Of a stretch of DNA of 47,037 nucleotides, positions 4,609 to 47,027 are shown one piece after another. Location: the UHGV virus genome UHGV-0206534; one strand, given 5' to 3'. A program made the position numbers and the translations under genes. Under the pieces are notes generated by a model, which searched no databases, was not told the origin of the DNA, and saw only the letters and a list, made by a program, of their open reading frames with translations. Within the stretch, counting starts at the first letter, position 1. Each line of letters opens with the position of its first letter. This DNA comes from a virus.

Positions 4609-4784
4609 TGGCGGAACGTTGGAAAATTTATCTCACTATTGCATTCATCGGCTTGGGAGCTACGCCGATAAGTATGGTAGCGGCAAAGATTGACGTTCCT
4701 AATTGGTCGCTTATTGCCGGGCACTGCGGCGCGATTATAGCAAGATTTATTTGCGCAGAACTTGGACGGGGAGCCAACCAATGA
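4608..4784 (+). CDS. Small membrane protein (58 aa)
   Basis: ATGA start/stop overlap on both sides. One hydrophobic helix. Confidence 0.35.
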   Translation: MAERWKIYLTIAFIGLGATPISMVAAKIDVPNWSLIAGHCGAIIARFICAELGRGANQ

Positions 4785-5401
4785 CCAGCAAATTAACCAG
4801 AGAGCGTATTCAGCGAATTATCCGAGCCATTGATAGCGAAGCTTATGACGAGGAAGAAATAAGAGAGTGGTTAAGTTCTGATGAAATCATGGAGCTTTCC
4901 CGCATGGCGCTGGCCGCAATGGACAGCGAGCCGGTTGAACTGCCTCTTGACTACCTGCAGGGACACAAAGACGGTCTGGAGTGGGCCTCCCAACTGGCAG
5001 AAGCCAATCACCCTGAGACCGGAGACTGGCTTTACGATGACCCTATCGAGCTGGCAAAAGCTATTCGCAAAGGTCCAGATATGCCGCCAGTGCAGCCGTT
5101 AGCGGACAGCGAGCCGGATCGCAATCCTGTGCTGGCGTATGCCGACAGTTATCGTGATATGGCGAAACAAGGCGTCGAGTCAGTCCCAATATGGAGCGTC
5201 ATTACCGACATAGAGCGAAACATAGCGCCGCTATATCGCCACGCGCAGCCAGTGCCGGTAGTGCCGGATGAACTCAACACAAGAACAGCGAACGATGTCA
5301 TAAATGAGCATTTGAGCTGGAAAGACTATGGTGACGCAGAAGTGTTTTGTATCGCCTGGAACGCTTGCCGCGCCGCCATGCTCAACGGAGGTAAGCCATG
5401 A
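4781..5401 (+). CDS. Hypothetical acidic protein (206 aa)
   Basis: RBS GGGGAGCC before an internal ATG of the 4703-5401 ORF. Confidence 0.5.
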   Translation: MTSKLTRERIQRIIRAIDSEAYDEEEIREWLSSDEIMELSRMALAAMDSEPVELPLDYLQGHKDGLEWASQLAEANHPETGDWLYDDPIELAKAIRKGPDMPPVQPLADSEPDRNPVLAYADSYRDMAKQGVESVPIWSVITDIERNIAPLYRHAQPVPVVPDELNTRTANDVINEHLSWKDYGDAEVFCIAWNACRAAMLNGGKP

Positions 5402-9964: not shown

Positions 9965-9976
9965 CCATGCTATAAT

Positions 9977-12590: not shown

Positions 12591-13142
12591 TTATTCTGTA
12601 ATCTCAATTTCAATGCTTTTATCACACTCATTACCCCATGTGTCCCACCCATCTGGAGCCTCTCTGGAAAATAATTCTATTCGCGGAATGTCGCCAACAA
12701 GCTCAATGATTTTATCGCGCACCAATGCAGGTTTTCTGCTGTGCTGCATTATTGGTTCTTCAATAATTGAGTGAACGCTCATAGATATTCTTTTTGGCTT
12801 TCCCTTTACAGCAAGAAGGCAGATTTCAGCATTTGATCTTGTCCAACGCCCCATCCCCCAGAAGTTAGTTAATGATCTCTTGTTTTTCTTTACCCATGTA
12901 AAGGCATTCGTCTTATACTCAAACCCCCACGCATCGATAAGCTCTAGCGCCTCCTTTATCTTTGGGAAGGTGGCCCACATAAAAAGAATGCAGTCATCAT
13001 CGGTTATTGATTGTATATCTAGCTTGCAAAGTTCTGAGTTTTTTGTTGTTTTGTAATGCCTCTCTGCACCTCCGCGATTTAAAGATTTATCATCGTATGA
13101 CCACGGCGGATCTGCATAAATAATTTTGTACTTCTTCATCAT
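12591..13142 (-). CDS. DNA N6-adenine methyltransferase (MT-A70/Dam-like)
   Basis: DPPW catalytic motif (IIYADPPWSY). 183 aa. Confidence 0.8.
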   Translation of the reverse strand: MMKKYKIIYADPPWSYDDKSLNRGGAERHYKTTKNSELCKLDIQSITDDDCILFMWATFPKIKEALELIDAWGFEYKTNAFTWVKKNKRSLTNFWGMGRWTRSNAEICLLAVKGKPKRISMSVHSIIEEPIMQHSRKPALVRDKIIELVGDIPRIELFSREAPDGWDTWGNECDKSIEIEITE

Positions 13143-13951
13143 CAGTCCTCCAGTTTCACGCCGGGGATTTTACCGGCTGCGATGGCATTGTAAAGTTCAT
13201 ACCACATACTGCCGAGTAATTGACCATCGCTGAGTTTCTCTCCGTATGTAAAATTAGCGGAATTTACAGCCTTAGCCAGAGACATAATGACCTCCTCGCG
13301 CTTCTTATCGGCTTCGGTGCGGAGTGGGCGGAACTCATCAGCCTTATCACCAAAAAAAACAAGTCGGTAATCGTATGACCACCCGAAGGTGAATCCGTCA
13401 TTTTTGGCAATGATGTCAACTGGGAGCCACGTGCCTTTACTATCCTGCATTTCACACGCGCACCCAATAGGAGGCAAGCCCTCGCCATTCCATTCTGGCA
13501 TATCAACATCCTGACCAATGCACTCATTCAAATCCTGCTCCATTCGGTCATTGTTGGCGCGGGATTTGATGTCTGGTTTGTGAGGGCGGTAGGCGATGAT
13601 GTCTGCACTCCAGTTATCGTGATTCCATAGCAAGTCAATGGCTTCAATATTCCTGTCATCATATCCATCTCTAAATCTCACATCAACCAGCGTGCCTTCT
13701 TCCACCGGGCACTCACCACCACCCCACTCAATCCAGCCTTCATTTTTGGCAGCCAGCGCGGCTTCGTACTGTCCGGCGTAAACAACATCGCAGATTTGAG
13801 TATCAATACCTGTAATTAATGCCTTTTTAATTTCAATGCCGCCAGGTTTATACGCCCCAGCCTCACCATTGTAAGAGCAATACTTTTCAGCACCATCAGG
13901 CCACCCACCACGCTTCGGTAATTCTTCAATCAAAATATCAATCAGCTTCAT
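13142..13951 (-). CDS. Hypothetical protein (269 aa)
   Basis: Long ORF co-oriented and overlapping with the methyltransferase gene. Confidence 0.5.
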   Translation of the reverse strand: MKLIDILIEELPKRGGWPDGAEKYCSYNGEAGAYKPGGIEIKKALITGIDTQICDVVYAGQYEAALAAKNEGWIEWGGGECPVEEGTLVDVRFRDGYDDRNIEAIDLLWNHDNWSADIIAYRPHKPDIKSRANNDRMEQDLNECIGQDVDMPEWNGEGLPPIGCACEMQDSKGTWLPVDIIAKNDGFTFGWSYDYRLVFFGDKADEFRPLRTEADKKREEVIMSLAKAVNSANFTYGEKLSDGQLLGSMWYELYNAIAAGKIPGVKLED

Positions 13952-15147: not shown

Positions 15148-15604
15148 CTGGAAAGTCGTTGCGGCCATCATCGGAGTGGCACTTCTGGCGCTGATTATCT
15201 ACGGAAAGTGGGTCAATTACGGCAAGGAGAGGTATAACTCTGGATATCTGGCCGCCGTAGAGGCGCAGAAGGTCAAAGACAAAGAGGCAAGCGAACAACA
15301 TGAACAAGACAAAAAGACCATCGAGCAGGAAGCGCAGGGTCGCATTGATGCCGCGCGTGCTGATGCTATTAATGCTGCTTCCAGCGCTGACAGGATGCGC
15401 GAAGAAACAGATCGAATACGCAAGCTCGCAGAGCATTATACCGGAACTCAGCCAGCGAGCATATCAACCAGAAAGGTCATCGTTATGCTTACCCAATTGC
15501 TTGACGAGAGCAACGATTCTTATCGACGAACAGCGGAAGAAGCTGACAGGTATTACAACTCTGGACTGACATGCCAAAAGCAGTACGAATCACTAATAAA
15601 ATGA
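15122..15604 (+). CDS. Rz: i-spanin Rz
   Basis: N-terminal TM helix, then a coiled-coil periplasmic domain. Confidence 0.7.
   Translation: MILQILKANWKVVAAIIGVALLALIIYGKWVNYGKERYNSGYLAAVEAQKVKDKEASEQHEQDKKTIEQEAQGRIDAARADAINAASSADRMREETDRIRKLAEHYTGTQPASISTRKVIVMLTQLLDESNDSYRRTAEEADRYYNSGLTCQKQYESLIK
15348..15569 (+). CDS. Rz1: o-spanin Rz1 lipoprotein embedded in the +1 frame of Rz
   Basis: MPRVLMLLMLLPALTGC lipobox. Fully embedded in Rz. Confidence 0.65.
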   Translation: MPRVLMLLMLLPALTGCAKKQIEYASSQSIIPELSQRAYQPERSSLCLPNCLTRATILIDEQRKKLTGITTLD

Positions 15605-15694
15605 TATAATCACAGTGCAGCTAGTCCGGCCAGACGAAAAGCGATTGGTTATCGCCTGCTGCATCACTTCAAACCACCTTTAACCGAGGATTCA

Positions 15695-16204: not shown

Positions 16205-16235
16205 CTTGTCAGGCTCGATATAACTCCCTGCACAA

Positions 16236-16265
16236 TAAAAAAGCCCCGTAAAGGGGCTTTGTTTT
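16236..16265. terminator. Bidirectional rho-independent terminator
   Basis: AAAAAAGCCCCGTAAAGGGGCTTTGTTTT. Confidence 0.75.
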
Positions 16266-19423: not shown

Positions 19424-19686
19424 AGCATAAATCAGGAACCGTGCTGTTTGTCACTGACTGTGAGCGAACGGCTGATAACCGCAGAGAAATGGGGTGGATA
19501 GTGGAAAAGTTAACGGCAATAGAGAGTCTGGCGAAAATAAACGAAGACAATAAGCGGGTTGTTACGGTAAACGTTGGCGTTTTGAAGGCCGCCCTTGCCG
19601 AGATAAAGGCGCACGTGGCCGTGAATGGTGAGGGTCTCATGACTCGCGCTATTATTAGAGCTTTAGAGGAAGGTATTAATAAATGA
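19411..19686 (+). CDS. Hypothetical protein (91 aa)
   Basis: Coupled ORF. Confidence 0.45.
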   Translation: MWSVKHKSGTVLFVTDCERTADNRREMGWIVEKLTAIESLAKINEDNKRVVTVNVGVLKAALAEIKAHVAVNGEGLMTRAIIRALEEGINK

Positions 19687-20027
19687 AACTACAACTCAGT
19701 GAAATCATGGAAGCAACAATCAGCGAACTGGATGACATTGATATGACACTTGCCTTTGAGATTGAGGCTATTGAGCGCCAACTTGCCGGTAATCATGATG
19801 CGGGCAGAGTATGGAAGGAGAAGGCCATGAAAGCGCGTGACCATATGAAACGCACCCGCGCGCTGGTTCGTATTCGCCTTGATAAGCTCTACTACGGTGA
19901 AGAAAGAATGTTGCATGGCGCCATTCTGGCTGAAATCCGCAAAACCATGCCTGTCGGGAAATTCATGGATGCAGTAAACCGTGCGAAAATTAACTGCGGA
20001 ATGCTAAATAAGAATAGTCCTCAATAA
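19683..20027 (+). CDS. Hypothetical protein (114 aa)
   Basis: ATGA overlap. Confidence 0.45.
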   Translation: MKLQLSEIMEATISELDDIDMTLAFEIEAIERQLAGNHDAGRVWKEKAMKARDHMKRTRALVRIRLDKLYYGEERMLHGAILAEIRKTMPVGKFMDAVNRAKINCGMLNKNSPQ

Positions 20028-20071
20028 ATCTTCATCATTGGCTGCTACCTTTCATTCAGGAGGTAGCATCC

Positions 20072-20194
20072 ATGCCAATCATACTAATATCATTCTTTGC
20101 TACTCTTTTTGCTTTTACCGCGTCCCCGCTTTACCTTCTCGCGTCCGTTTCTTGGTGCATATTCATGGTGTGTTATAATCCGGGCATAAAGTAA
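20072..20194 (+). CDS. Hydrophobic 40-aa peptide with strong SD
   Basis: AGGAGG lies 8 nt before the ATG. The SD sits inside the hairpin GCTACCT...AGGTAGC. Confidence 0.3.
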   Translation: MPIILISFFATLFAFTASPLYLLASVSWCIFMVCYNPGIK

Positions 20195-20209
20195 GCGCGG
20201 AGAAAGGTC

Positions 20210-21619
20210 ATGATTGTCAAAATTGGCGACAAATGGGTCGTTAAATCTAAGGATGGCTCGCACCAGTTTGGCGAGTACGACACCGAAGAGGCGGCAAAAA
20301 AGCGCCTTGCTGAGGTGGAGGCATTCAAGCACATGAATAATAAATTACAGGTTAACATCCTTTACACCATCAATTCATCCAGCAATATCAGTGAAAAAAT
20401 CATCGACGGAGACCCGCACTACATTATTAAAAATGTCGTACCGGTTGTTGATGACATTGTGATGAACGATGGCCTTTATCCGGCTGATGAGATTAAGAAG
20501 TCATTTCGTGGCCTTGACGGCAAGCCAGCGCCGTACAATCACCCGATGATTGATGGGAAATACGTATCAGCCAGCATGACGCGCGCAGCTAACCAGTTCA
20601 GCGTTGGTGCATGGATTGAAAACTCAACTCATGACGGCAGCAAGGCTCTGGTAGACCTTTACATCAATAAAGTGGTAGCCGAGCGCTCTGATAATGGCCG
20701 GGAGTTGCTGTCGCGCATTGACGCGTTGAAAAATAATGCCGATGGTGCGGAACCGGTGCAGGTTTCCACTGGCCTGCTACTGAATCGCGAGAAGGCATCC
20801 GGTAAGTCAAAGGGCAAAAAGTACTCCTGGATTGCCCGCAATATGGAATGGGATCACCTTGCCATTCTGCCGCCCGGCGTTCCCGGTGCTGGTAGCCCTG
20901 ATGACGGTGTCGGCATCTTTGCCACCAACGGGCAGGAAATCGAGCGCATCACCGTTAACCTTGAGGAATCAACCATGCCCGACACAAGCGCCGACCATTT
21001 AAATAAATCCTGGCTCAAAAAGCTGGTGAGATACATGGTCAAAAACAGCGACCTGTCATTTGACGATATCACCAGCCAGATTCGCAGTATTTTGCAGGCG
21101 GAATTGGGTAAGGATAGCTGGCCTTATATCGTTGCCGTCTATGATGACCGCGCCGGATTCGAAATTGACGGTCAACTTTACCAGCAGCCCTACATCATTC
21201 AGGAAGATATGGTAAAATTGGTCGGTGAGCGGGTTAAGGCTGTTTATAAAACAGAACTTGAACCGGTAAAATCAAACGAAGGGGATATCTCAATGACTAA
21301 CGAGGAATTACAGGTCATCCTGACCAATGCCCTCAAACCGGTTCAGGAAAAGCTTGATTCGGTTAATACTGAGCTGGCACTCGTAAAACAACAGAACGCC
21401 GACATGCAGAAGGTGCTGAGCGCCAATGCAGAGCAGGAAGAAACGGTGATGCGTGCTGCCATCTTGAAAGAGTTGAAACTGCCTGAATCGGCTGTCAACG
21501 CCCTGACTGGCGATGCGCTGCGCGAAACCTACGCACTGACCAGCAAAGCCCCTGCGATTAAAGGCGGCATGCAGGGCAACAGCGCCGACGATGATTTCTC
21601 TATGGAGGCACCTGAATAA
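20210..21619 (+). CDS. Putative capsid scaffolding/prohead protease protein
   Basis: 469 aa, immediately upstream of the decoration-like and major capsid genes. Coiled-coil C-terminal half. Confidence 0.45.
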
Positions 21620-22083
21620 TGGCTACTATCCGTTATGGCACCATCATCGGCGGCCCGGCCCGCAAAAACGACCCGCAGCTGCGCGAAGGTCTGATGAGCG
21701 CCGCTCTGCAACCTGGCGCACTGGTAGACTTCAACTCCTCCGACCAAATCATCGCGCATGCGACTGCTGGCGGCCAGGGCTTCCCTTACGTTCTGCAACA
21801 CAACTATGTTGGCGGCGGCGACGTAAGCGAAGCTGTACCGGCAAATGCTACCGGCATGGCGGTGCAGTGCGAATTTGGGGTAACGTATCACGCTCTGGTT
21901 GCGGCATCCTCAGCACTGGTAAAAGGTACTCCGCTGGCAAGCAATGGCTCCGGCGCGTTAAAAGTGGCTGAAGCAGGTGAAAACATCCTGTTTTATGCGT
22001 ATGAAGCCTACACCGTAGCATCTGATGGCGCTGAACTCGTTGCAGTTCGTCGCGCTGGCAATGCTGCAATGCCTGCGGCGTAA
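21619..22083 (+). CDS. Putative head decoration/cement protein
   Basis: 154-aa Gly/Ala-rich protein between the scaffold and major capsid genes. Confidence 0.4.
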
Positions 22084-22094
22084 GGAGCCGAATA

Positions 22095-23183
22095 ATGGAA
22101 AAGATTATCTTTACGAAAGGCTTAATCACCAACTCGCAGGTGGTTAAAGAGCAATGGCGCCACCTGACTGTTGACCGCAAGGTTTTCATTAATGGTGAAA
22201 ACGCTCTGGCGAAAGAATACGGCTTGAACGCCACCGCACTGGTAACGAAAGATTACTGGCGCGAAGTGGACGACGTGACTACCCGTGTATTCCGCAATGA
22301 GTCCGGCATGGATATGATGGCCGACCTGATGACGCTGGCGACCAACATCAACATCGGTAAGACCGTGGCAATTAGCCGCATGGCTTCCGACGCTGGTAAG
22401 GTTGTGCGCACCATCTCCGGGCAGGAGCCTGAAGACCTGGATAAAACCCGCTATTCCTACAGCGGCGATGTAATCCCAATTTTCAAAACTGGTTATGGCC
22501 GCGAGTGGCGCGAACTGCTGGGTATGCAGTCTGAAGGTTTCGACCCGCTGATTGATGACCAGGAAAGCACCACCTTCAACCTGCGTGCAGATATGGCAGA
22601 TTACCTGCTGGTCGGCGATGCAAGCCTGAACGTGAACGGTGTTTATACTGCCTACGGCATCACCAACCACCCGAACACCGTACAGCTCAACCTGAGCGCT
22701 TCCGGCACTGGCGCGCTGAACATCGACCTGCAAACTGCAACCCCTGACGAAATCGTTGAGTTCTTCAACCAGGATTTCCAGGCGGTTCTGGATGCGCAGA
22801 ACGTGTTCGAGCCGGTAACTCTGTGGGTTTCTCCGGCTGTGCGACGCTCCTTCAGTCGCCCGTACTCCAACGCGGCAGGCTTCAAAGGCGGCACCATTGA
22901 GGATTATATCCTCGCATTCGGCAAAACTGGCAACGTTGGCCGCATCGCGTCTATCGGCACCAACTTCAAGCTGACCGGAAACCATTTCGTCGGCTATGTG
23001 AAGAATGCGCTGTATATTCGCCCTCGCGTCGCTCAGCCGGTATCAACCTATGCAGAGCCGCGCACCACGCCGCATGCTAACTTTAACTTCCTGACCTGGG
23101 CTGCTATGGGCCTGCAAATTCGCCGGGATTTCTCGGGTCGAAGCAAAGTTTTCAACGGCTACGGCACGCAAACCGCGCTGTAA
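22095..23183 (+). CDS. Major capsid protein
   Basis: 362 aa, with strong codon bias. Followed directly by a strong terminator. Confidence 0.7.
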   Translation: MEKIIFTKGLITNSQVVKEQWRHLTVDRKVFINGENALAKEYGLNATALVTKDYWREVDDVTTRVFRNESGMDMMADLMTLATNINIGKTVAISRMASDAGKVVRTISGQEPEDLDKTRYSYSGDVIPIFKTGYGREWRELLGMQSEGFDPLIDDQESTTFNLRADMADYLLVGDASLNVNGVYTAYGITNHPNTVQLNLSASGTGALNIDLQTATPDEIVEFFNQDFQAVLDAQNVFEPVTLWVSPAVRRSFSRPYSNAAGFKGGTIEDYILAFGKTGNVGRIASIGTNFKLTGNHFVGYVKNALYIRPRVAQPVSTYAEPRTTPHANFNFLTWAAMGLQIRRDFSGRSKVFNGYGTQTAL

Positions 23184-23184
23184 A

Positions 23185-23210
23185 AATAAAGGGGCGAATA
23201 GCCCCTTTTT
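23185..23210 (+). terminator. Rho-independent terminator
   Basis: AAAGGGGCGAATAGCCCCTTTTT. Confidence 0.8.
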
Positions 23211-23227
23211 AACTATCAGAGGTTATC

Positions 23228-23422
23228 ATGGCTAAATATGAAGTAATCGCCAGCGGAATCTTTATCAAGGACAAGGATGGTCGTTTGCGTGAACTTGCCA
23301 TTGGCGACGTCATTGACGAATCGACTCCGCACATTGAGTCAAAACTTCGCCCGGTTAGTGAGAAAATTCTGGAAGTTGCAACTCCGCAAGAATCGCAGCC
23401 AAAGGCGAAGAAAGCTAAATAG
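23228..23422 (+). CDS. Hypothetical small protein (64 aa)
   Basis: RBS AGAGGTTATC before the ATG. Flanked by terminators. Confidence 0.45.
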   Translation: MAKYEVIASGIFIKDKDGRLRELAIGDVIDESTPHIESKLRPVSEKILEVATPQESQPKAKKAK

Positions 23423-23452
23423 AAAAGCCCCGGAAGGGGCTTTTGTTTATTT
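23422..23452. terminator. Bidirectional rho-independent terminator
   Basis: GAAAAGCCCCGGAAGGGGCTTTTGTTTATTTT. Confidence 0.8.
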
Positions 23453-23587
23453 TAGCGTGAACCAAACCTTATCTTCTTTTTCATGCAGGTGGTCGCGCTC
23501 TTTTGGTTCTGGAAAATCCTTTGGTTCTAGCCCCATCTCGCAAGCGGTATCAAAAGAAATATCATCTTCGTCAATGTTGTCACTCAT
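23447..23587 (-). CDS. Small acidic protein (46 aa)
   Basis: Last gene of the leftward operon, 2 nt downstream of the clamp-like gene. Confidence 0.3.
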   Translation of the reverse strand: MSDNIDEDDISFDTACEMGLEPKDFPEPKERDHLHEKEDKVWFTLK

Positions 23588-23589
23588 CA

Positions 23590-24126
23590 CTAAATCCTCA
23601 TCGGCATAACGATAACTTTTGCAGTCTCGCCAGTCGGCGCACTGATGCTTGCGACAGCGGCGCTGGTATTTCCGTTCAGCTCAAAGAGCACCGCTTCATA
23701 TTTCGGGTTAAACAGCTTAGCAAGCTTCTCAGCATCTGCCGGGTATTTGGCGTTGAAGCCGATTTGCTCAGTTGGTGTAGTCTCCTTCGGGATAACGCGA
23801 TCAATGTCAGGGAATCGGCCATCAATCTCAGAACAGATACCTGCGCCTACCATAATTTCATGCTCGTCATGGTAGGTGACAGTGTTTGTTTTGTTATCCA
23901 GCACCGCGTAATCATAGCGCTTAGTTGGCGACTTGCTAACTGATACAATGATGTTATCGTCAAGTTTATTATTGTGCTTATCACTAACAAACAGGCGATG
24001 CCCATCAGTTGCCGCCACGCGACCATCAGGCATAAAGCAAATTCCGTTCAGGTAATAACGCACATCGTTTTTCGCCTGAAACATTAATGCGCCCTCGAGT
24101 AATAACTTACTAATTTTTAATTTCAT
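23590..24126 (-). CDS. Truncated DNA polymerase III beta sliding-clamp homolog (domains II-III only)
   Basis: VRYYLNGICF...ATDGHRLFV aligns with E. coli DnaN VRYYLNGMLFE...ATDGHRLAV. IDGRFPDIDRVIPK matches VDGRFPDYRRVLPK. C-terminal VIVMPMRI matches YVVMPMRL. Confidence 0.7.
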   Translation of the reverse strand: MKLKISKLLLEGALMFQAKNDVRYYLNGICFMPDGRVAATDGHRLFVSDKHNNKLDDNIIVSVSKSPTKRYDYAVLDNKTNTVTYHDEHEIMVGAGICSEIDGRFPDIDRVIPKETTPTEQIGFNAKYPADAEKLAKLFNPKYEAVLFELNGNTSAAVASISAPTGETAKVIVMPMRI

Positions 24127-24299
24127 TTCTTAACCTTCACCATGTGTTGTTTTGCAACCTTCAGGCATTCATCAAAAATCTTGCCTTTCTTCTCACTCTG
24201 ATTGCATCTGTAGTGGGTAATTGCGGCCTCTATAGCCGCATTGTCGATACCTGGCAGTTTTTCGCGCATGTTTTTCTCTATGAATTGTTCGTGGTTCAT
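24123..24299 (-). CDS. Hypothetical small basic protein (58 aa)
   Basis: ATGA overlaps on both sides. Confidence 0.35.
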   Translation of the reverse strand: MNHEQFIEKNMREKLPGIDNAAIEAAITHYRCNQSEKKGKIFDECLKVAKQHMVKVKK

Positions 24300-24556
24300 C
24301 TTTGCAGCCTAAATGAAATATTACTCCCACCTATTGCAACATAACGGAATTTTCCGCAACCTTTTTTGACCCTGCACTTTCTGTATCGGTAGCGTCGCAT
24401 TTCATGGTAGGCCTTTTCTGTCAAAAGGAATATGAATCCCCTATCAATGGCGCCAGCAACCTCAACCACGGATTTAGACATTTGATCAATAATGTCTTTA
24501 GTGCTCATAGAAGACCAATCCACGCTATGACCACTATTAATTAATCCTTTCATCAC
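24296..24556 (-). CDS. Hypothetical protein (86 aa)
   Basis: ATGA overlaps on both sides. Confidence 0.4.
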   Translation of the reverse strand: MMKGLINSGHSVDWSSMSTKDIIDQMSKSVVEVAGAIDRGFIFLLTEKAYHEMRRYRYRKCRVKKGCGKFRYVAIGGSNISFRLQR

Positions 24557-25368
24557 AGCTTCTCCAGAATCGCCAGCACCTCACTCAACTCAGCAGAAGG
24601 AAGGCGCAAAAATTCTTCTGTCTCCTGTGCCACATGGCCCTCAGCGACAACCATGTGATCTGCTTCTTTCAGCAACTGAATCAGGCGGTCAATCGGCTTA
24701 ACTTTTTTGGCCTTGAGCGTTTTCGCCGTCACCTTATCTTTTCCCTGCGCTTTCGCTTCCTCAACGGCAGCATCAATAACGTTAACGGCATCATCGCCAT
24801 GCTCACGTGCGACCGCAACGGCGTTGGAATAGCTGATTTGGCCTGCATTGATGCGCTGCTTGATGGCGTCAGGCACGTCACCAAGTGACAAGTGCATCTG
24901 CACATCAGAAACCGAGCGACCTACTTTTTTGGCGATTTCTTCATTCGTCCACCCGAACCCTTTGAGGCGTACATAAGCCTTTGCACGCTCAAGCGGGTCA
25001 AGCTGCTTTCCTTGACTGGATGACACCATGAAGGCGATTTTATCCGCTTCATCGCCGGTGAAGTCTTTGCACTCAATGCGCGCAATTGGTACGCCGCGCT
25101 CAATGGCACGCAGTGCGCCAAGATAACGATGCTGGCCGTCAAGAATCTTGATGCGCTTTCCGTCAGCATCAGGAATAACAGTTAACGCCGGGATTGGCTG
25201 GCCTTATTCCCAGCACTGCGCGAAGTATTCAACGTGCTGCTCATCGGCTTCGCGGATGTTGTACCCAGGATCAAGATAAAGCTGGTCGACAGGAACCTGA
25301 TAACCTTTGTTGACCACGATTCCGCCGCGAGTTTCTTTGTCTGAGTAAATTTTTCCGAGAGATGTCAT
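24553..25368 (-). pseudogene. ParB-like nuclease/HTH domain gene interrupted by a single in-frame TAA (25204-25206)
   Basis: Continuous frame from ATG 25368 (RBS GAGGAAAAG). The N-terminal 54 codons end at TAA. The same frame continues ...GKRIKILDGQHRYLGALRA (ParB box) ... TNEEIAKKVGRSVSDVQMHLSL (HTH). Confidence 0.55.
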
Positions 25369-25375
25369 CTTTTCC

Positions 25376-25492
25376 TCACTTTAACAAACAGATTGCGCTG
25401 GCAATGGCGAATCCGATAACGATTAACGCCAGCTTAATTTTGAAGTTGCGCCATGCCTTCAGGTCTTCTTTGCGGATTTCGTGGCGGATCAT
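25376..25492 (-). CDS. Small membrane protein (38 aa)
   Basis: ATGA overlap with the Ea22-like gene. One TM helix. Confidence 0.3.
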   Translation of the reverse strand: MIRHEIRKEDLKAWRNFKIKLALIVIGFAIASAICLLK

Positions 25493-25800
25493 TGTGATTC
25501 TCCGATTGCTTTGGCGATGGCATCTTTAGCTTTCGAGGTGTTAACGTAGACACATGCGCGAGCTTCCAAATCCATCAGCGCTTCCAGCAATTCAGGCGCG
25601 GCGGCAATGAGCCGTGCATTAGCCATTAGATAATCCATCTGCTCATCATCCGTGGACATAGACACCACGCATTCGGCGAATCTGTAGTGCGGAACTTCAC
25701 CGTTATGGTCAAAATCAAAGATTGCCATTCCATCCTTGATTCTCATGCTCCACGGGCCGTGGTACCCTTTAAACTCTTTCATCTTCATCACCTCTAACAT
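25489..25800 (-). CDS. Ead/Ea22-like protein
   Basis: LMANARLIAAAPELLEAL is a hallmark segment of Ea22/Ead-family proteins. Confidence 0.5.
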   Translation of the reverse strand: MLEVMKMKEFKGYHGPWSMRIKDGMAIFDFDHNGEVPHYRFAECVVSMSTDDEQMDYLMANARLIAAAPELLEALMDLEARACVYVNTSKAKDAIAKAIGESQ

Positions 25801-25811
25801 TTATTGTTGTT

Positions 25812-25853
25812 TCTACGTCATCACTATAGCTATACCCTCAATCTACGTCAACA
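25812..25853. promoter_or_regulatory. Conserved element (two copies) forming a leftward promoter: TTGACGTAGATTGAG, 8 nt, TATAGT
   Basis: On the minus strand, -35 TTGACG, a 17-bp spacer and -10 TATAGT. Same architecture as the 2395-2423 promoter. Confidence 0.55.
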
Positions 25854-26012
25854 CTTTATGATAAAATTAAACCAACAACACTCACCCCGCGCTGTTCCGT
25901 CCTGAAAAACGTAAGGCGGCGAAATTGTATATAGCAATCGGCGTTATCGTCATGGCGTTTTCGCTGGTTCAGGTGTACAGATGCTGGAAGTTCATCATTC
26001 GGAGAATAATTA

Positions 26013-26300
26013 ATGAGAGACGCGCTTCAGCACGCCGCAAACCAGATAATTAGTGGCACTGTCGGCCAGGTAATCGACAAAGCCGGTTATACATCCATCG
26101 GCACGGGTCTTGGCCTGAAGGTGGCAGAGCAGACGCCGGTCGCGCAATCATACATTGCATCAATGATCCCCCATTCAATTACCGAGTGGGCAGCGGTAGC
26201 CTCTATACTTGGCGCGCTGTCACTGGTGGCAAAAAACCTTTTTGAGATGTGGTGGAAGATTCGGGAGAGCAAAAAGAATGGCAGCACCGACAGCAAGTGA
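26013..26300 (+). CDS. Putative holin-like membrane protein (95 aa)
   Basis: Single TM helix (WAAVASILGALSLVA) and a charged C-terminus. RBS GGAGAATAA. Confidence 0.3.
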   Translation: MRDALQHAANQIISGTVGQVIDKAGYTSIGTGLGLKVAEQTPVAQSYIASMIPHSITEWAAVASILGALSLVAKNLFEMWWKIRESKKNGSTDSK

Positions 26301-26670
26301 ACTTGTCGCCGCCATGGCGTCAAGAGGCGTAACTATCACCACGGCGGACGCAACGGGAATCCTGTGTCTGATAGCGAGCATCACAGAGTGCCTTGAGCTT
26401 AATTACCCTGAAGACACATGCAGGCAGGATGCAATTCTGCTATGGGCATCTATCCTGATCGCCTCAAACACTGCCGGGAGATATATCACCAGCCACCGGG
26501 CGCCATCTGGTGCGTCGCAGTCATTTGGCTATGGCAGTAAGCCGTGGATGGCCCTTTACAATCAGATGAAACTACTCGATACGGCAGGCTGCACCGGCGA
26601 CCTTGTGGAGGAGCCTGATGGAAGTGCAAAGCCGTGGTTTCGGGTTGTTACCGGGAGTAAGTGCAGATGA
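26278..26670 (+). CDS. Putative head-tail connector/head completion protein (130 aa)
   Basis: First gene of the head-tail joining block. Internal ATG with RBS GGGAGAGC. Confidence 0.35.
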   Translation: MAAPTASELVAAMASRGVTITTADATGILCLIASITECLELNYPEDTCRQDAILLWASILIASNTAGRYITSHRAPSGASQSFGYGSKPWMALYNQMKLLDTAGCTGDLVEEPDGSAKPWFRVVTGSKCR

Positions 26671-26801
26671 AAACGTCAACATTAACTGTAAATATCGCAA
26701 TCCGTAAATGGTGCATGCCGCTGCTGGTTATTCTGGTGTTGCTGCGCCTTCCTGTTCCGCGCTGGGTTTATACTCTTGAGGACGCACCATGTCAGCAATA
26801 G
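26667..26801 (+). CDS. Small membrane protein (44 aa)
   Basis: ATGA overlap. Hydrophobic core. Confidence 0.3.
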   Translation: MKTSTLTVNIAIRKWCMPLLVILVLLRLPVPRWVYTLEDAPCQQ

Positions 26802-27133
26802 CGAGATGGAGCTATACGCAGCCATGCACAATCTGGCGGCTTACCGGCAAGGATAAGTATGGCAAGCCAACATTTGCCGCGCCAGAATCCATCATGTGTG
26901 ATTATGGCTTCGATAAGAATCTGACCACCGGCACGGCTGGCAATGAGATTGCACAGAAAAACACATTCTGGACGGAATACCAGAATGCGTCTGTTGGCGA
27001 CTTCATCATGCTTGGCACCATTACCAGTGCTGACCCGCTGGCCGCTGGAGCTGACCAGATTAGAAACGTCGTGAATTACGGCAATACGCTAGACCGCAAT
27101 GACCTGCCTGACTTTGCGCTGGTAACGGGGTAA
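26789..27133 (+). CDS. Putative head-tail adaptor protein (114 aa)
   Basis: Position in the head-tail joining block. Confidence 0.35.
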   Translation: MSAIARWSYTQPCTIWRLTGKDKYGKPTFAAPESIMCDYGFDKNLTTGTAGNEIAQKNTFWTEYQNASVGDFIMLGTITSADPLAAGADQIRNVVNYGNTLDRNDLPDFALVTG

Positions 27134-27136
27134 TGT

Positions 27137-27604
27137 ATGGCCGCCAAAATGAGAGGTATCCAGCAGGCTATTAAGCGCACCCAGCAGATAGTCGGCGAGA
27201 TTACTGGTGAGAAGGCTGTACGGGCTATAAAGAGCGCTAACTTTATTATCCGCACTGAGGCGGCCAGCATGACGCCTGTTGACACATCCAATCTCATAAA
27301 CAGTCAATATGATACTGTTGAGGTGAATGGCACCCGTATAACCGGGAAGATAGGGTATACAGCAAAATATGCCCTGTATGTGCACAATGCGCCAGGTACG
27401 CTAAAGGGACAACCTCGCGCCCACTTTGGCAAGACAAGTAACCGCTCTGAATTCGGGCCGCAGCAGGTTAGGGAGTTTGGTGGAGGTTCATTGCAGGGAA
27501 ACTATTGGGACCCGAGCGGCGAGCCTAAATTCCTCCTCAAGGCTGGCGAAAACACACGCGAGCTTGTCGATCAGGTAATTAAAAAAGAGATGACACTAAA
27601 ATGA
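27137..27604 (+). CDS. HK97 gp10-like head-tail joining protein
   Basis: KYALYVHNAPG resembles the gp10-family YAAYVEFGT segment. 155 aa. Confidence 0.5.
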   Translation: MAAKMRGIQQAIKRTQQIVGEITGEKAVRAIKSANFIIRTEAASMTPVDTSNLINSQYDTVEVNGTRITGKIGYTAKYALYVHNAPGTLKGQPRAHFGKTSNRSEFGPQQVREFGGGSLQGNYWDPSGEPKFLLKAGENTRELVDQVIKKEMTLK

Positions 27605-27984
27605 GAGATATGCTTGAGCTTGTTGACCAGTACCTTAGCGATGCCGGTCTTTATGATGGGTGGACTTCTCAGCTTGAGTTCTGGAACGATACCGAAGTTG
27701 GCACAGACCGGTTTATGGTGCTGCAATCCAATGGCGGTACGAACGTAAGCAAAGACCTCAGCAATGATTATTATTTTTCGCTCTATGTTGTTGGTCAGCA
27801 AGGTCAGTACAACATCGAGGAAACAAAAGCAAAAGCGCTTGATGTAATCTCATATATCAAAGAGCATCCCGTTGATAGCTGCATTGGTATGATTCAGTTG
27901 CAGGCTCCGCTTGGTCGCCCGACTCTTACGACAGAGAAAAGGCCTGTTTATGAATTGTTGCTGAGGGTTGTTTTTGGTGAATAG
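27601..27984 (+). CDS. Putative tail completion/terminator protein (127 aa)
   Basis: ATGA overlap with the gp10-like gene. Last gene before a terminator. Confidence 0.35.
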   Translation: MRDMLELVDQYLSDAGLYDGWTSQLEFWNDTEVGTDRFMVLQSNGGTNVSKDLSNDYYFSLYVVGQQGQYNIEETKAKALDVISYIKEHPVDSCIGMIQLQAPLGRPTLTTEKRPVYELLLRVVFGE

Positions 27985-28010
27985 AAAAGGCCGCTGATGA
28001 GCGGCTTTTA
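27985..28010. terminator. Bidirectional rho-independent terminator
   Basis: AAAAGGCCGCTGATGAGCGGCTTTTAAT. Confidence 0.75.
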
Positions 28011-28202
28011 ATAGTCATTGCTACATAATAAATAATCAATGGCATCGCCAAGAGATTCGAATCTTGCATCATATCTCCCGGCAGAATTTGCAACAACATA
28101 CCACTTACCTACCTTTGATATGCCAGCAATCCTGCTATTATTTTTGTCAGCTATGCGCCAGTAATCATCGTGGATTTTTTGTATTTGTATCATTGCGCTC
28201 AC
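28008..28202 (-). CDS. Hypothetical protein (64 aa) downstream of the tRNA cluster
   Basis: ORF between the tRNAs and the terminator. Confidence 0.4.
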   Translation of the reverse strand: MSAMIQIQKIHDDYWRIADKNNSRIAGISKVGKWYVVANSAGRYDARFESLGDAIDYLLCSNDY

Positions 28203-28208
28203 CGAAGA

Positions 28209-28285
28209 TGGTTACCGCGACAGGATTCGAACCTGTAATCATCCGATTATGAGTCTGGTGCTTTAACCAGTTAAGCTAAACGGGA
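28209..28285 (-). tRNA. tRNA-Met-like (anticodon CAU), possibly degenerate
   Basis: Canonical T-arm ACAGG-TTCGAAT-CCTGT, D-arm GCTT/AAGC and anticodon loop CTCATAA, with encoded CCA. The acceptor stem has 2 mismatches and the anticodon stem 2 mispairs. Confidence 0.5.
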
Positions 28286-28288
28286 ATT

Positions 28289-28366
28289 TGGTGCACCATA
28301 CTGGATTCGAACCAGTGACCCACGGCTTAGAAGGCCGTTGCTGCTATCCTGCTGGGCTAATGGTGC
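28289..28366 (-). tRNA. tRNA-Arg (anticodon UCU)
   Basis: Acceptor GCACCAT/ATGGTGC, anticodon stem ACGGC/GCCGT, loop CTTCTAA, T-loop GGTTCGAATCC and encoded CCA. The D-stem is weak. Confidence 0.7.
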
Positions 28367-28372
28367 TGAATG

Positions 28373-28460
28373 TGGCGGATAGTACAGGATTCGAACCTGT
28401 GAACCGTTTCCGGTTTATCGGTTAGCAACCGACTGCTTTCGGCCTCTCAGCCAACTATCC
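28373..28460 (-). tRNA. tRNA-Ser (anticodon GCU), type II with long variable arm
   Basis: Acceptor GGATAGT/ACTATCC, anticodon stem GTCGG/CCGAT, loop TTGCTAA, long variable arm, T-loop GGTTCGAATCC and encoded CCA. Confidence 0.7.
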
Positions 28461-29009: not shown

Positions 29010-29169
29010 GTGCGCCTGCGCATTTTAGCGCTTCGCCGGTATTTTTTTTGATGAGGATTGTATCGTTAATCTCCTCTATCATTCCTGGACTTACCTCAAC
29101 GCTAAGGATTACCAGTAGCGACATTATAATTAACTCAATCAAGTTAACCTCCTGTGCTGTTTATTTAAA

Positions 29170-29210
29170 TCTACACCACCAATCAAAACCTGTCAACATG
29201 ATATAATGCG
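29170..29210 (+). promoter_or_regulatory. Promoter of the major tail gene (-10 TATAAT at 29203-29208); partial conserved element AAATCTACACC
   Basis: Perfect TATAAT 34 bp upstream of the ATG. RBS AGAGGA. Confidence 0.45.
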
Positions 29211-29241: not shown

Positions 29242-29997
29242 ATGGCTATTTGTGCAAATGATAACGGCATCATCACAGGTCGCCAGTCGCTCATTGAGCT
29301 GGCTGATGGCTGCTGGGATGCTGTGCCAGCAGAGGAAGACTGGAAGTTTTTTGCTCCCATGACCTCAAAAGGCGTCGACTTCAGCCCAAGCACCACTACC
29401 TCAGAGGCTGATGATGGCGATGGCTTTGTTGCTACGCTGGTCACTACCGCAGACCTCACTATTTCTGGTGATTTTGAAGTTCGCAAGGCTGACAAGGCTG
29501 ATGAGTATGGCGTGCACAACCTCATAAAATACTTTGTCACCGAAGTAAAAGCTCGTCGCCAGCCGTCGCTGTGGGTTCGCCAGACCACCGGCAATACCGT
29601 TGTCGTTGCTTACTGCAACATTACCGCTCTGAGCTACGATGGCGGCACCAACGACATCATCACCGGCTCAGTTGAATTCAAGCCGTATGATGGCTCTACC
29701 GTTGACGTGTCCAGCATCGAAGATTTGACGCTGACCACTGATATCAGTGCAACCAAAAGCGTTGCCACTGGCGCCACTCTGACGCTCGGTCCGGTAGTTG
29801 CGGCTGGCGGTGTCGAGCCTTATACCTACCAATGGTATAAAGGCACTACGCCGATCAGCGGCGCCACTACCGACACGTTCACCAAGGCCACTGCTGCCGC
29901 AGGTGATGCTGGTACGTACTTCTGCCGCGTGATGGACTCGGCAACCAGTCCTGATTATGTTGACTCAACCAAGTGTGTTGTTACCGTTACGGCATAA
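29242..29997 (+). CDS. Major tail (tube) protein with C-terminal Ig-like domain
   Basis: 251 aa. C-terminal YTYQWYKGTTPISGATTDTF...AGTYFCRV is an Ig (I-set/Big)-like fold signature. Followed by a strong terminator. Confidence 0.65.
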   Translation: MAICANDNGIITGRQSLIELADGCWDAVPAEEDWKFFAPMTSKGVDFSPSTTTSEADDGDGFVATLVTTADLTISGDFEVRKADKADEYGVHNLIKYFVTEVKARRQPSLWVRQTTGNTVVVAYCNITALSYDGGTNDIITGSVEFKPYDGSTVDVSSIEDLTLTTDISATKSVATGATLTLGPVVAAGGVEPYTYQWYKGTTPISGATTDTFTKATAAAGDAGTYFCRVMDSATSPDYVDSTKCVVTVTA

Positions 29998-30027
29998 AGA
30001 AAACCCCCGAAAGGGGGTTTATTTTTT
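29998..30027 (+). terminator. Rho-independent terminator
   Basis: AAACCCCCGAAAGGGGGTTTATTTTTT. Confidence 0.8.
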
Positions 30028-31427: not shown

Positions 31428-31475
31428 CTCAATCTACGTCAGTCTTGCGCACCCTGTCAATGGTATAATTACGTC
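31428..31475. promoter_or_regulatory. Divergent promoter region: conserved element CTCAATCTACGTCAG plus rightward -10 TATAAT
   Basis: On the minus strand, TTGACA, an 18-bp spacer and TAGATT. On the plus strand, TATAAT at ~31466. Confidence 0.5.
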
Positions 31476-46119: not shown

Positions 46120-47013
46120 ATGCGATACGACTGGAAGGATATAGAGCCTTTAATGGTAGGGAACTGGCAGGCTGCCATCATGTCGATAGTCAATGTCGAT
46201 ATGAGAATTTTCAATGGTAAGCATCAGCCATGCCCAAGTTGCGCTGGCAAGGACAGGTTTAGATTCGATGACCACTTAGACTACAAAGGTGACGGCGGCG
46301 CCATCTGCAACCAGTGCGGAAACGGCAGCGGAATCACCTGGTTAATGAAGCTGTCAGGAATGACGTTTCCAGAGTCAATGGAGGCACTGGCCGGATTTCT
46401 GAATATGCACCCACGCGAAAGACTTGAGGCGATTAGAAAGCAACTTCCGAAGGTCAACCATGCTTCTGACTACCTGACAGAGGCAGAAGTGACGGCCATC
46501 ATGGAAAAAGCGGGAGGCGACACCATAACCGGTAAAACTGGTGAACTGGTGGCGATACCGCTCTATATGGCTGGAACCATGACGCCATGCAATGTGGCAT
46601 TCATTGCTGACGATGAAAGTGTGTCATTTCGCGCGGGTTTCAGCCATGAGTACACTCGCGGAAGACTTACGCGCGGCGCCGTTACACCAATTGGAGATAA
46701 GACAGAATGGACATACCTGGTTGCGGATTACTTCGATGCCTGGCGAGCGCATCGGCTTACCGGTGCTCATGTCTGGTGCTGCTGGTCGCCGGAAAACATG
46801 TGGGAAGTTGTGCGCAATGTTAGCGATGAACAGCGCACTAAACTGCGTTGCATCATTAATAATAATTTCGATGAGGTATGCGCCGCCGAGGATGCAGGTC
46901 TTCCGATACTGATTACTGATGATGGTCAGGAGATTCGTTACAGCGGAGCCATCAGGAAAAGGCTGTATAAACCAGAAGAACTATTTGAAGTACTAAAAAA
47001 CAAACCCTCCTAA
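46120..47013 (+). CDS. DNA primase (zinc-binding, P4-type N-terminal domain)
   Basis: CPSCAGKDRFRF...GAICNQCG zinc-finger typical of phage/plasmid primases. 297 aa. Confidence 0.6.
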   Translation: MRYDWKDIEPLMVGNWQAAIMSIVNVDMRIFNGKHQPCPSCAGKDRFRFDDHLDYKGDGGAICNQCGNGSGITWLMKLSGMTFPESMEALAGFLNMHPRERLEAIRKQLPKVNHASDYLTEAEVTAIMEKAGGDTITGKTGELVAIPLYMAGTMTPCNVAFIADDESVSFRAGFSHEYTRGRLTRGAVTPIGDKTEWTYLVADYFDAWRAHRLTGAHVWCCWSPENMWEVVRNVSDEQRTKLRCIINNNFDEVCAAEDAGLPILITDDGQEIRYSGAIRKRLYKPEELFEVLKNKPS

Positions 47014-47027
47014 TGGAGGGTTTTTTA
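47004..47027 (+). terminator. Rho-independent terminator
   Basis: AACCCTCCTAATGGAGGGTTTTTT. Confidence 0.8.

Follow-up and report, generated by a model that had tools for sequence, protein, structure and literature searches.

A compact accessory gene cassette with a truncated beta-clamp homologue among the structural genes of a Klebsiella siphovirus-like genome

UHGV virus genome UHGV-0206534, a 47,037 bp stretch of DNA (here called the window and analysed over its whole length), carries among its structural genes a leftward cassette of seven short open reading frames (ORFs), g1 to g7, which includes a ParB-like gene and a truncated homologue of the bacterial beta sliding clamp. The reading that we favour, at a probability of about 0.6, is that this region is a short, independently transcribed accessory unit (a "transcripton"), of the kind dispersed among the structural genes in T1-like and Skatevirus/Roufvirus-like siphoviruses, with a likely interaction with the host at the level of DNA. 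Sequence and comparison with relatives establish the boundaries of the unit, the packing of its genes, its conserved promoter hexamers and leader, its mosaic structure, the domains of g3 and g6 and a nonsense codon in g3; manipulation of the host by the clamp fragment is plausible. The operon itself mostly confirms the existing annotation of related phages. Dozens of public phage genomes already carry the module, in part with annotation, and the cassette combines its alleles in a new way. What the analysis adds is a correction of annotation, two promoter classes and a conjectural clamp reduced to its binding pocket.

In the mechanism that we propose, host RNA polymerase with sigma-70 would start near 25816-25818, about 7 nucleotides (nt) downstream of the TATAGT hexamer, and make one transcript of ~2.4 kb that ends at a hairpin shared with a convergent gene. 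The -35 hexamer would act as part of a recurrent element of the phage, TTGACGTAGATTGAG, and the cassette would be expressed with the early/middle non-structural class of genes. Overlapping or abutting stop and start codons would couple translation of successive genes. The pocket of g6, possibly together with g5, would then bind clamp-binding motifs of host proteins without encircling DNA, and its candidate partners, recruited or titrated, would be Pol III alpha or delta, Hda, MutS/L and translesion polymerases.

Boundaries, promoter and gene junctions

The seven co-directional minus-strand ORFs run from 25782 to 23447, between a promoter at 25851..25823 and a hairpin at 23423-23444. An earlier note on this DNA, made from the letters alone, had described a seven-gene leftward operon that looked self-contained, and both descriptions hold: a consensus scan found no terminator-like site inside the unit, which has its own promoter, tight packing and a terminator, and the promoter-leader block is kept even in another genus, in Skatevirus Seszw_1. 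Against relatives, all seven ORFs evolve as coding sequence, with ratios of non-synonymous to synonymous substitution rates (dN/dS) of 0.01-0.38 (0.01-0.24 for g2-g6). The features are as follows, with protein lengths in amino acids (aa) and isoelectric points as pI.

25823..25851, minus strand: sigma-70-type promoter; -35 TTGACG at 25851..25846, 17-bp spacer, -10 TATAGT at 25828..25823; 10/12 consensus positions
25837..25851, minus strand: 15-nt motif copy TTGACGTAGATTGAG, overlapping the -35 hexamer
25812..25820, minus strand: partial motif copy TGACGTAGA, just 3' of the -10 and overlapping the predicted start site
25783..25815, minus strand: leader, conserved in comparison with relatives, with a strong Shine-Dalgarno sequence, GAGGTGAT, 6 nt before the ATG
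25489..25782, minus strand: g1, 97 aa, acidic, pI 4.9; hypervariable; phrog_1273 at E 5e-16
25376..25492, minus strand: g2, 38-aa basic peptide with a hydrophobic C-terminal helix; ATGA overlap with g1
24553..25368, minus strand: g3, ParB/KorB-like DNA-binding protein, 271 codons (816 nt), interrupted by an ochre codon
25204..25206, minus strand: in-frame TAA at codon 55 of g3; TCA (Ser) in relatives
24296..24553, minus strand: g4, 85 aa, basic, pI 10.2; variable slot
24123..24299, minus strand: g5, 58 aa, basic; phrog_4439 at E 3e-22; ATGA overlaps with g4 and g6
23590..24126, minus strand: g6, 178 aa; homologue of the beta sliding clamp, truncated to domain II and the C-terminal half of domain III
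23447..23587, minus strand: g7, 46 aa; strongly acidic, with a pI of 4.3 and a net charge of -9; variable last gene of the unit
23423..23444, both strands: hairpin AAAAGCCCC-GGAA-GGGGCTTTT between convergent gene ends; G+C-rich, T-runs on both strands

The promoter TTGACG-17-TATAGT is the one that the earlier note had described. Both hexamers are invariant in seven phages, and the four positions of the promoter that vary among them all fall in the spacer. Although Seszw_1 has an unrelated first gene and unrelated DNA upstream, it keeps TTGACGTAGATTGA...TATAGT.ATGACGTAGAAACAACAATAAATGTTAGAGGTGATG, with about 6 of the 17 spacer positions changed. The earlier note had also placed the promoter inside a conserved element, and the -35 hexamer indeed begins the 15-nt motif TTGACGTAGATTGAG, which has 10 matches in the genome at no more than three mismatches against 1.12 expected, a number that none of 100 shuffles reached; the 9-mer TGACGTAGA occurs 17 times in the genome against 5.9 expected. 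All full copies of TTGACGTAGATTGAG are intergenic, are oriented like the genes downstream of them and are kept at homologous sites in the related phage KP591P3. The partial copy at 25812..25820, possibly an operator or an additional recognition element, is conserved in the seven phages (TGATGTAGA in one) and in Seszw_1.

Motif copies precede nearly all minus-strand operons and also a rightward group of small genes starting at ~2453. The following operons were named from Pfam matches and the annotation of KP591P3.

46079: motif copy before the helicase (ResIII) operon
43687: motif copy before a small gene, then PDDEXK exonuclease, ERF recombinase and SSB
14426: motif copy before a three-gene unit ending in an MT-A70 methylase
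31442: motif copy before a cor-like gene
25851: motif copy before the clamp/ParB cassette

A different site, TGnTATAAT, occurs six times in the genome against 1.75 expected, and five of the six are on the plus strand, which carries the structural and lysis genes.

9968-9976, plus strand: TGnTATAAT upstream of the ORF at 10013
15602-15610, plus strand: TGnTATAAT upstream of the ORF at 15695
20171-20179, plus strand: TGnTATAAT upstream of the ORF at 20210
29199-29207, plus strand: TGnTATAAT upstream of the ORF at 29242
31461-31469, plus strand: TGnTATAAT upstream of the ORF at 31498

At the level of sequence, the genome has two separable promoter-like classes: non-structural operons follow the TTGACGTAGATT motif, and structural ones follow TGnTATAAT. 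Because the cassette shares its motif with the helicase, recombination, MT-A70 and cor-like operons, and TGnTATAAT stands at the structural ones, we infer that expression is not late: the cassette would belong with the non-structural (early/middle; replication and recombination) class and not with the structural class. The two classes would provide a testable map of the transcription programme for a therapeutically used group of Klebsiella phages.

The register of the motif varies from site to site. It supplies the -35 hexamer at 25851 and 2395, and its TAGATT part occupies the -10 position at 31442, 29196 and 8273, for which reason we rejected the motif as a fixed -35 element. It is also unlikely to be the binding site of the ParB-like protein, as it is asymmetric and all its copies are kept despite the knocked-out gene. 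The leader context of the cassette, GAGGTGATGAAGATG, recurs at the head of the operons downstream of the motif copies at 2395 and 43687. An extended Shine-Dalgarno and start context, GAGGTGATGAA(G)ATG, is found at ~2440, ~8580, ~25794 and ~43650, at the first gene of several operons, and looks like a reused unit of promoter, leader and ribosome-binding site. Three clustered minus-strand tRNA genes (Met-CAT, Arg-TCT and Ser-GCT; 28209-28460), inserted between the head-tail and tail genes, have a promoter-like site TTGACA-17-TAGATT upstream of them (29168-29196, minus strand). Upstream of the cassette promoter, the divergent intergenic region 25860-26012 is 98% identical across the seven phages, above the neighbouring genes. 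A plus-strand ORF of 42 codons with a TTG start (25925-26053) encodes a hydrophobic segment followed by basic residues; in RSU-F4K5 a different ORF, of 29 codons and on the minus strand, is annotated in its place.

At the other end of the unit, the hairpin is flanked by the stop codon of a plus-strand 64-aa gene (23422) and that of g7 (23447). Compared with shuffled sequences, it folds with a z-score of -5.1 (minus strand) or -4.0 (plus strand); the consensus scan flagged it on the plus strand, and the minus strand has a TTTTCTATTT tail. Terminator-like on both strands and followed by T-runs, it agrees with the bidirectional terminator that had been proposed for this place. Four similar hairpins of the AAAAGCCCC...GGGGCTTTT type occur in the window, at 16234-16264, 23418-23448, 29994-30024 and 46996-47026, and this family probably provides shared bidirectional terminators that delimit transcription modules.

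At the tightest junctions within the cassette the genes overlap by 4 nt; the widest spacing, between g2 and g3, is 7 nt. Four consecutive ATGA overlaps of start and stop codons had been claimed; ATGA strings are present at those starts, but only three are true overlaps (g1/g2, g4/g5 and g5/g6) and two of the strings involve back-up stops. The g3/g4 junction reads cTG TGA TGA: the ATG of g4 shares 1 nt with the real stop, while the TGA of its ATGA is a second in-frame stop. The g6/g7 junction reads TAGTGATGA (TAG TGA TGA), and the ATG of g7 comes 2 nt after the TAG. Overlaps of 4 nt and 1 nt are commonplace in the lineage, accounting for 14 and 12, respectively, of the 63 same-strand junctions of KP591P3, and are nothing special.

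The clamp fragment, the ParB-like gene and the small genes

Sequence and fold comparisons agree with the earlier clamp-like label for g6. A phmmer search of the PDB matched bacterial beta clamps at E 4e-12, and hhalign aligned g6 to Escherichia coli DnaN with a probability of 98.6% and 39% identity, covering residues 136-254 and 314-366 and skipping 255-313 (segments 136-290 and 316-366 of the DnaN sequence used agree with the PDB alignment). An AlphaFold2 (AF2) model built from 96 diverse cluster-representative sequences reached a predicted local distance difference test (pLDDT) score of 97 and a predicted template-modelling (pTM) score of 0.91; with 30 close homologues only, pLDDT was 40. 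The top PDB folds found by Foldseek were E. coli beta clamps (probability 1.0, E ~1e-8, query-normalised TM-score ~0.65), and many phage proteins of 180-250 aa in BFVD share the fold, with TM-scores of up to 0.89.

We compared g6 with the clamp-binding pocket (18 residues, subsites I and II) and the dimer-interface residues listed for the E. coli clamp (PMC11139829). Sixteen of the 18 pocket residues are identical to those of E. coli, the exceptions being V360I and V344T, and the interface residues I78, R103, F106, I272, L273, E298 and E304 (7/7) fall in gaps of g6. The same pattern of pocket and interface is present in five homologues of 26-36% identity, from a Kagunavirus, Salmonella phage SE1, a Sortsnevirus, a Vibrio phage and a Skatevirus. 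Among 96 family members, the columns conserved in at least 90% are D21, R23, Y25, L26, G42, H43, P106, Y128, M174 and P175 of g6 (D150, R152, Y154, L155, G174, H175, P242, Y323, M362 and P363 in E. coli numbering), and all of these except D150 and Y154 are pocket residues, that is 8/10 (R152, L155, G174, H175, P242, Y323, M362 and P363). The C-terminal MPMR is retained as well (VIVMPMRI in g6, VVMPMRL in E. coli). With 178 aa, and with domain I and residues 255-313 absent, g6 is not a three-domain protomer of ~366 aa; its model has no helix where the inner helix of E. coli domain II aligns, and its pI is 6.4. On this model g6 is not predicted to close a ring, since all the ring-closing parts are absent.

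The PHROG 3007 profile matches g6 over residues 1-178 at E 6e-57. At E <= 1e-10 the clamp-fragment family comprises 198 clusters, and among the top 150 of these nearly all full-length matches measure 165-222 aa, shorter entries being partial. By sequence, then, g6 belongs to a large family of phage beta-clamp fragments of ~180 aa that spans many unrelated siphovirus lineages. The RefSeq label "RusA-like Holliday junction resolvase" for such proteins (for example NC_071155 PRB92_gp33 and NC_054653 KGB53_gp36) traces to PHROG 3007. We rejected a RusA identity, given no Pfam RusA match and PDB matches by sequence and fold that were all to clamps, and the label appears to be wrong for the family. 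Some RefSeq models add 14 N-terminal codons (192 aa in all), which overlap g5. Relabelling as a clamp fragment turns a widespread uncharacterised protein into a biochemical hypothesis on the way in which polymerase-less phages handle the host replisome. Our literature search for truncated clamps found no direct description; a 2011 survey noted Pol III beta homologues in phages and did not describe the architecture of g6, and a Kagunavirus time course does not mention the clamp-like gene.

The search for a DNA polymerase domain in the ten large ORFs outside the obvious structural block found none by Pfam, and none is annotated in KP591P3; the Pfam matches in those ten were to helicase, primase, exonuclease, ERF, SSB and MT-A70. 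Three ORFs, 42-1697 (minus strand, 551 aa), 4703-5401 (plus strand, 232 aa) and 13142-13951 (minus strand, 269 aa), have no Pfam match at E <= 0.001, and the 551-aa ORF sits in the neighbourhood of the replication genes of this phage, which is without a recognisable DNA polymerase. The gene upstream of g6, g5, is conserved as its partner: a homologue, unannotated, directly precedes the clamp-like gene in Seszw_1 also. That the 58-aa and 178-aa proteins form a host-takeover module, in which g6 would be a pocket-only sponge or adaptor for clamp-binding motifs, is a tentative proposal to which we give well under even odds. If it is true, targets such as Pol III alpha or delta, Hda, proteins of mismatch repair or translesion polymerases would be drawn by g6 off the host clamp or towards phage DNA.

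For g3, the earlier ParB-like call was right about the family: HTH_ParB (E 3.6e-11) and KorB (E 3.3e-6) both match above the Pfam cutoffs, and phrog_1033 matches at E 1e-87. It was wrong to treat the gene as intact, having missed the TAA at codon 55. Because of this codon, gene callers split g3 into two, and the reading frame gives 54 aa and 158 aa in place of the whole protein; the next in-frame start after the stop, at 25029, lacks a Shine-Dalgarno sequence. VLCpiS13b and XY3 have TCA at this position, as do all 26 other sequences with the same flanking 22 bases, and the Logan assembly of SRR8653133 is identical to the window at the codon. With TAA unique among the 27 sequences that share these flanks, the mutation is recent. 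Apart from the stop, g3 is undecayed: its protein is 98-99% identical to those of five of the six close relatives and 94% identical to that of Tbat1_6. It is the most constrained gene of the cassette, with dN/dS of 0.01-0.04 against five of the six and 0.10 against Tbat1_6. Because this genome carries a nonsense mutation in it, the ParB-like protein is probably dispensable for lytic growth. A fresh nonsense codon in the most constrained gene suggests conditional dispensability or selected loss, for example as an escape from host defence.

In its N-terminal part, box II of g3 reads LDGQHRYLGA, with a weak match to a DGQHR domain; TIGR00180 scores 43.8 against a cutoff of 58.45, and Pfam did not find a ParBc domain. 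In a limited test for partition partners, no ParA was seen in the annotation of the complete KP591P3 genome, and a search for a recurring parS-like or operator palindrome found nothing repeated.

The start of g1 had been put at 25800, but the likeliest start is 25782 (97 aa), which fits a GAGGTG 6 nt upstream and the starts annotated in relatives; the in-frame ATGs at 25800 and 25788 fall within or upstream of the ribosome-binding site. The protein was also described as Ea22-like. That identity was rejected: Pfam, NCBIfam, PHROGs and tblastn lend it no support (lambda Ea22 itself was not compared directly), and the precomputed Pfam match is to PF27050 Phage_P22_Y8K6. Found in four phage records by tblastn and 32-75% identical to relatives, g1 has conserved ends (MxEFKG..GPW and AIAKALGESQ) and a conserved centre (ANAxLIAAAPELLEAL), between which the relatives carry variable inserts. 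The 38-aa g2 fits the membrane peptide described earlier, with a hydrophobic C-terminal half and a positive grand average of hydropathy (GRAVY), and is a 117-nt gene in six of six close annotated relatives (dN/dS 0.09-0.16). No Pfam, PHROGs or NCBIfam profile matched g4, which occurs in ~7 of 30 loci (dN/dS 0.12-0.16). The acidic 46-aa g7, whose pI likewise fits its description, is present in only 2 of ~30 related loci, with dN/dS 0.38 against XY3, its single comparator.

The cassette among relatives and competing explanations

In a nucleotide search, region 23200-26100 matched 198 phage records. The closest, from Klebsiella phages vB_KpnP_XY3 and VLCpiS13b, cover 87-91% of the query and are ~91% identical to it. 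A 25-kb stretch is ~90% identical to KP591P3, Aeromonas phage pIS4-A (genus Roufvirus) and others, and the Logan assembly of SRR8653133 is 100% identical to positions 19590-28084. From its sequence, the window looks like the complete ~47 kb genome of a Roufvirus/Skatevirus-like Klebsiella siphovirus. The BASEL follow-up paper places such phages, siphoviruses of 46-48 kb, in a Skatevirus-centred cluster with Roufvirus as the outgroup; the current NCBI lineage puts Roufvirus directly under Caudoviricetes, without a family.

The cassette lies on the strand opposite to its neighbours, with the major head protein and the 64-aa gene on one side and head-tail genes on the other. This location had been called unusual, but XY3, VLCpiS13b, KpV2811, RSU-F4K5, Tbat1_6 and Seszw_1 all have the cassette in the same position, which is thus normal for the lineage. 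In Kagunavirus Schulenburg and the Guernseyvirinae Salmonella phage SE1, the clamp-like gene alone forms an opposite-strand island within the head module. The shared placement of cassette or clamp gene in these relatives makes the location a lineage trait. G+C content is 42-51% across the cassette and 42-46% over g4-g6 (23600-24800), compared with 52-57% in the flanking structural genes; the lower values over g4-g6 are consistent with acquisition of the distal part from elsewhere.

We compared ~30 loci, including 23 IMG/VR contigs retrieved with a ParB sequence tag. Nearly all of them have the 38-aa peptide and the ParB-like gene, whose protein is 97-99% identical in most; g5 is usually there, and g6 occurs in about two-thirds. 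The exact set found here, this g1 allele with g4 and g7, occurs in none of the ~30 relatives. After the ParB-like gene, KpV2811 has a C5-methylase and an endonuclease VII, RSU-F4K5 a methyltransferase, and others small helix-turn-helix (HTH) proteins. The cassette is, on this comparison, a mosaic hot-spot with swappable slots on fixed anchors, namely the promoter and leader, the 38-aa peptide, the ParB/KorB-like protein, the 58-aa protein with the clamp fragment, and the terminator. A second type of cassette, without the clamp fragment, has a divergent g5 allele of ~70% identity (loci L003, L013, L018 and L021). KP591P3 (L003, 12381-13679) also carries an 83-aa gene and an extra plus-strand gene of 272 aa between the capsid operon and the end of the cassette, and Tbat1_6 (L006, 1764-2863) combines the extra genes of the second type with the clamp fragment.

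Several observations weigh against an independently transcribed unit that acts on the host. Hexamer score by itself is uninformative, as the genome has 9 sites at 10/12 or better against 9.4 expected, the level of chance; what supports the promoter is where it lies, how well it is conserved and the motif that it shares. That motif, with its varying register, may serve as the binding site of a factor and not as part of the core promoter. In g3 the ochre codon leaves ~490 nt untranslated, and Rho-dependent polarity on g4-g7 is possible. The literature on Drexlerviridae, Skatevirus and Kagunavirus yielded no direct data on transcripts, start sites or timing, and co-transcription and early timing are what we infer. 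About one-third of relatives lack g6, which is accordingly not essential. The canonical clamp-binding motif Q[LIVM]x[LIVM]F matched twice in the six-frame ORFs, both times in unlikely frames and never in a likely phage protein; no phage-encoded ligand can thus be proposed, a result weakly consistent with host targets. Finally, the methyltransferases that frequently neighbour the clamp-like gene in other phages would fit DNA modification or anti-restriction equally well.

This last point leads to the strongest competing explanation, an anti-restriction or defence-evasion island in which g1, g7, the ParB-like protein and the clamp fragment would protect or modify incoming phage DNA, for example through help to methyltransferases or a block of host nucleases, and would not take over host replication. 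It is compatible with the reading favoured here, and we regard it as possible, though less likely than not. The BASEL follow-up paper reports that the small siphoviruses of the group are highly sensitive to restriction-modification. In relatives, a methyltransferase occupies the slot after the ParB-like gene, be it a C5-methylase, alone or accompanied by endonuclease VII, or a different one; short clamp-like genes adjoin methyltransferases, or sit between them, in IME279 and Vibrio phage R19R; the first cassette gene of Seszw_1 encodes a very acidic protein with an anti-restriction annotation; and here g1 is hypervariable and g7 has the low pI given above. However, the window's own cassette contains no methyltransferase (its MT-A70 gene belongs to another operon), the small proteins belong to no characterised family and match only PHROGs without an assigned function, and the strictly conserved pocket points to ligands with clamp motifs. 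Methyltransferases are not known as clamp-pocket ligands. It is less likely, and on balance unlikely, that the seven ORFs are not one operon here, with internal promoters or Rho-dependent termination after the ochre codon splitting off g4-g7, which would then be expressed on their own or barely. The nonsense codon (25206..25204), followed by a start at 25029 with no Shine-Dalgarno sequence, and a weak promoter-like site inside g6 (23939..23911, 9/12 positions) would allow it; yet internal promoter-like sites are at the level of chance (3 in the region against 4.6 expected), no intrinsic terminator-like site lies within the cassette, the g3-g7 junctions overlap or abut, and the polarity argument does not apply to relatives with an intact ParB-like gene.

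The two remaining explanations give g6 or g3 its textbook role, and both are unlikely because interface and domains are missing in the one case and ParA and parS in the other. A genuine processivity clamp, encircling phage DNA for example as a higher-order oligomer and tethering host Pol III, would suit a DnaN homologue with an intact polymerase-binding pocket, in a phage in whose ten large ORFs Pfam recognised no DNA polymerase, and many depositors do annotate g6 homologues as "DNA polymerase III beta subunit". Nevertheless, g6 amounts to only ~1.5 clamp domains. It lacks domain I, every listed interface residue and that half of domain III in which I272/L273 lie; the inner helix of domain II is not modelled, the pI is near neutral, and no clamp loader is annotated in KP591P3. 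We consider this role very unlikely. Still less credence goes to a partition or carrier-state system in which the ParB-like protein would help the cassette to support plasmid-like persistence. Its similarities to the ParB HTH, KorB and TIGR00180 and the RefSeq name "ParB-like partition protein" speak for it. Set against these are the lack of an annotated ParA in a complete relative genome and of a recurring parS-like palindrome, the knockout of g3 here, a box II of DGQHR and not GERR, a TIGR00180 score below its cutoff, and relatives described as lytic phages.

Comparison with known systems

The closest counterparts are the cassettes of XY3, VLCpiS13b (PRB92_gp32-gp38), KpV2811, RSU-F4K5, Tbat1_6 (Flyfo siphovirus) and Seszw_1 (gp17-gp19), all in the same position and on the opposite strand. 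They share with the window the promoter-leader block, an 816-nt ParB-like gene (810 nt in Seszw_1), the 58-aa gene and a 537-nt clamp-like gene; the 38-aa peptide is shared with the close relatives only and not with Seszw_1. The window differs from them in the unique ochre codon of its ParB-like gene, and they differ from it in the methyltransferases, endonuclease VII or HTH proteins of their slot. Some relatives, unlike the window, have no clamp-like gene.

According to a paper on phage TLS (PMC11447400), the late region of coliphage T1 consists of "transcriptons" that have RpoD promoters and rho-independent terminators, and TLS itself has an intergenic repeat of its own, 21 nt long and present at 21 sites. 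The genome analysed here resembles these phages in having what look like promoter-driven units and a phage-specific intergenic repeat, although TTGACGTAGATTGAG is unlike the TLS consensus.

In the ParB/KorB family, g3 shares the HTH and KorB matches and N-terminal motifs like the ParB boxes. It departs from the family in its box II, which has DGQHRYLGA and not GERRxRA, and in having no annotated ParA and no evident parS.

By sequence and fold, g6 resembles domain II and the C-terminal half of domain III of E. coli DnaN (PDB 2POL and 1MMI), but it has 178 aa and not 366, with no domain I, no residues 255-313 and none of the listed interface residues. Among the short phage "DNA polymerase III beta" proteins of PHROG 3007 it is an ordinary member, from which nothing material sets it apart. 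The MuC protein of phage Mu carries clamp-binding motifs and binds the host clamp, and disturbance of the interaction between motif and pocket strongly alters host replication control (Hda, RIDA) (PMC12867686). MuC exploits the pairing of clamp motif and pocket; g6 would do so in reverse, with a pocket that the phage itself encodes.

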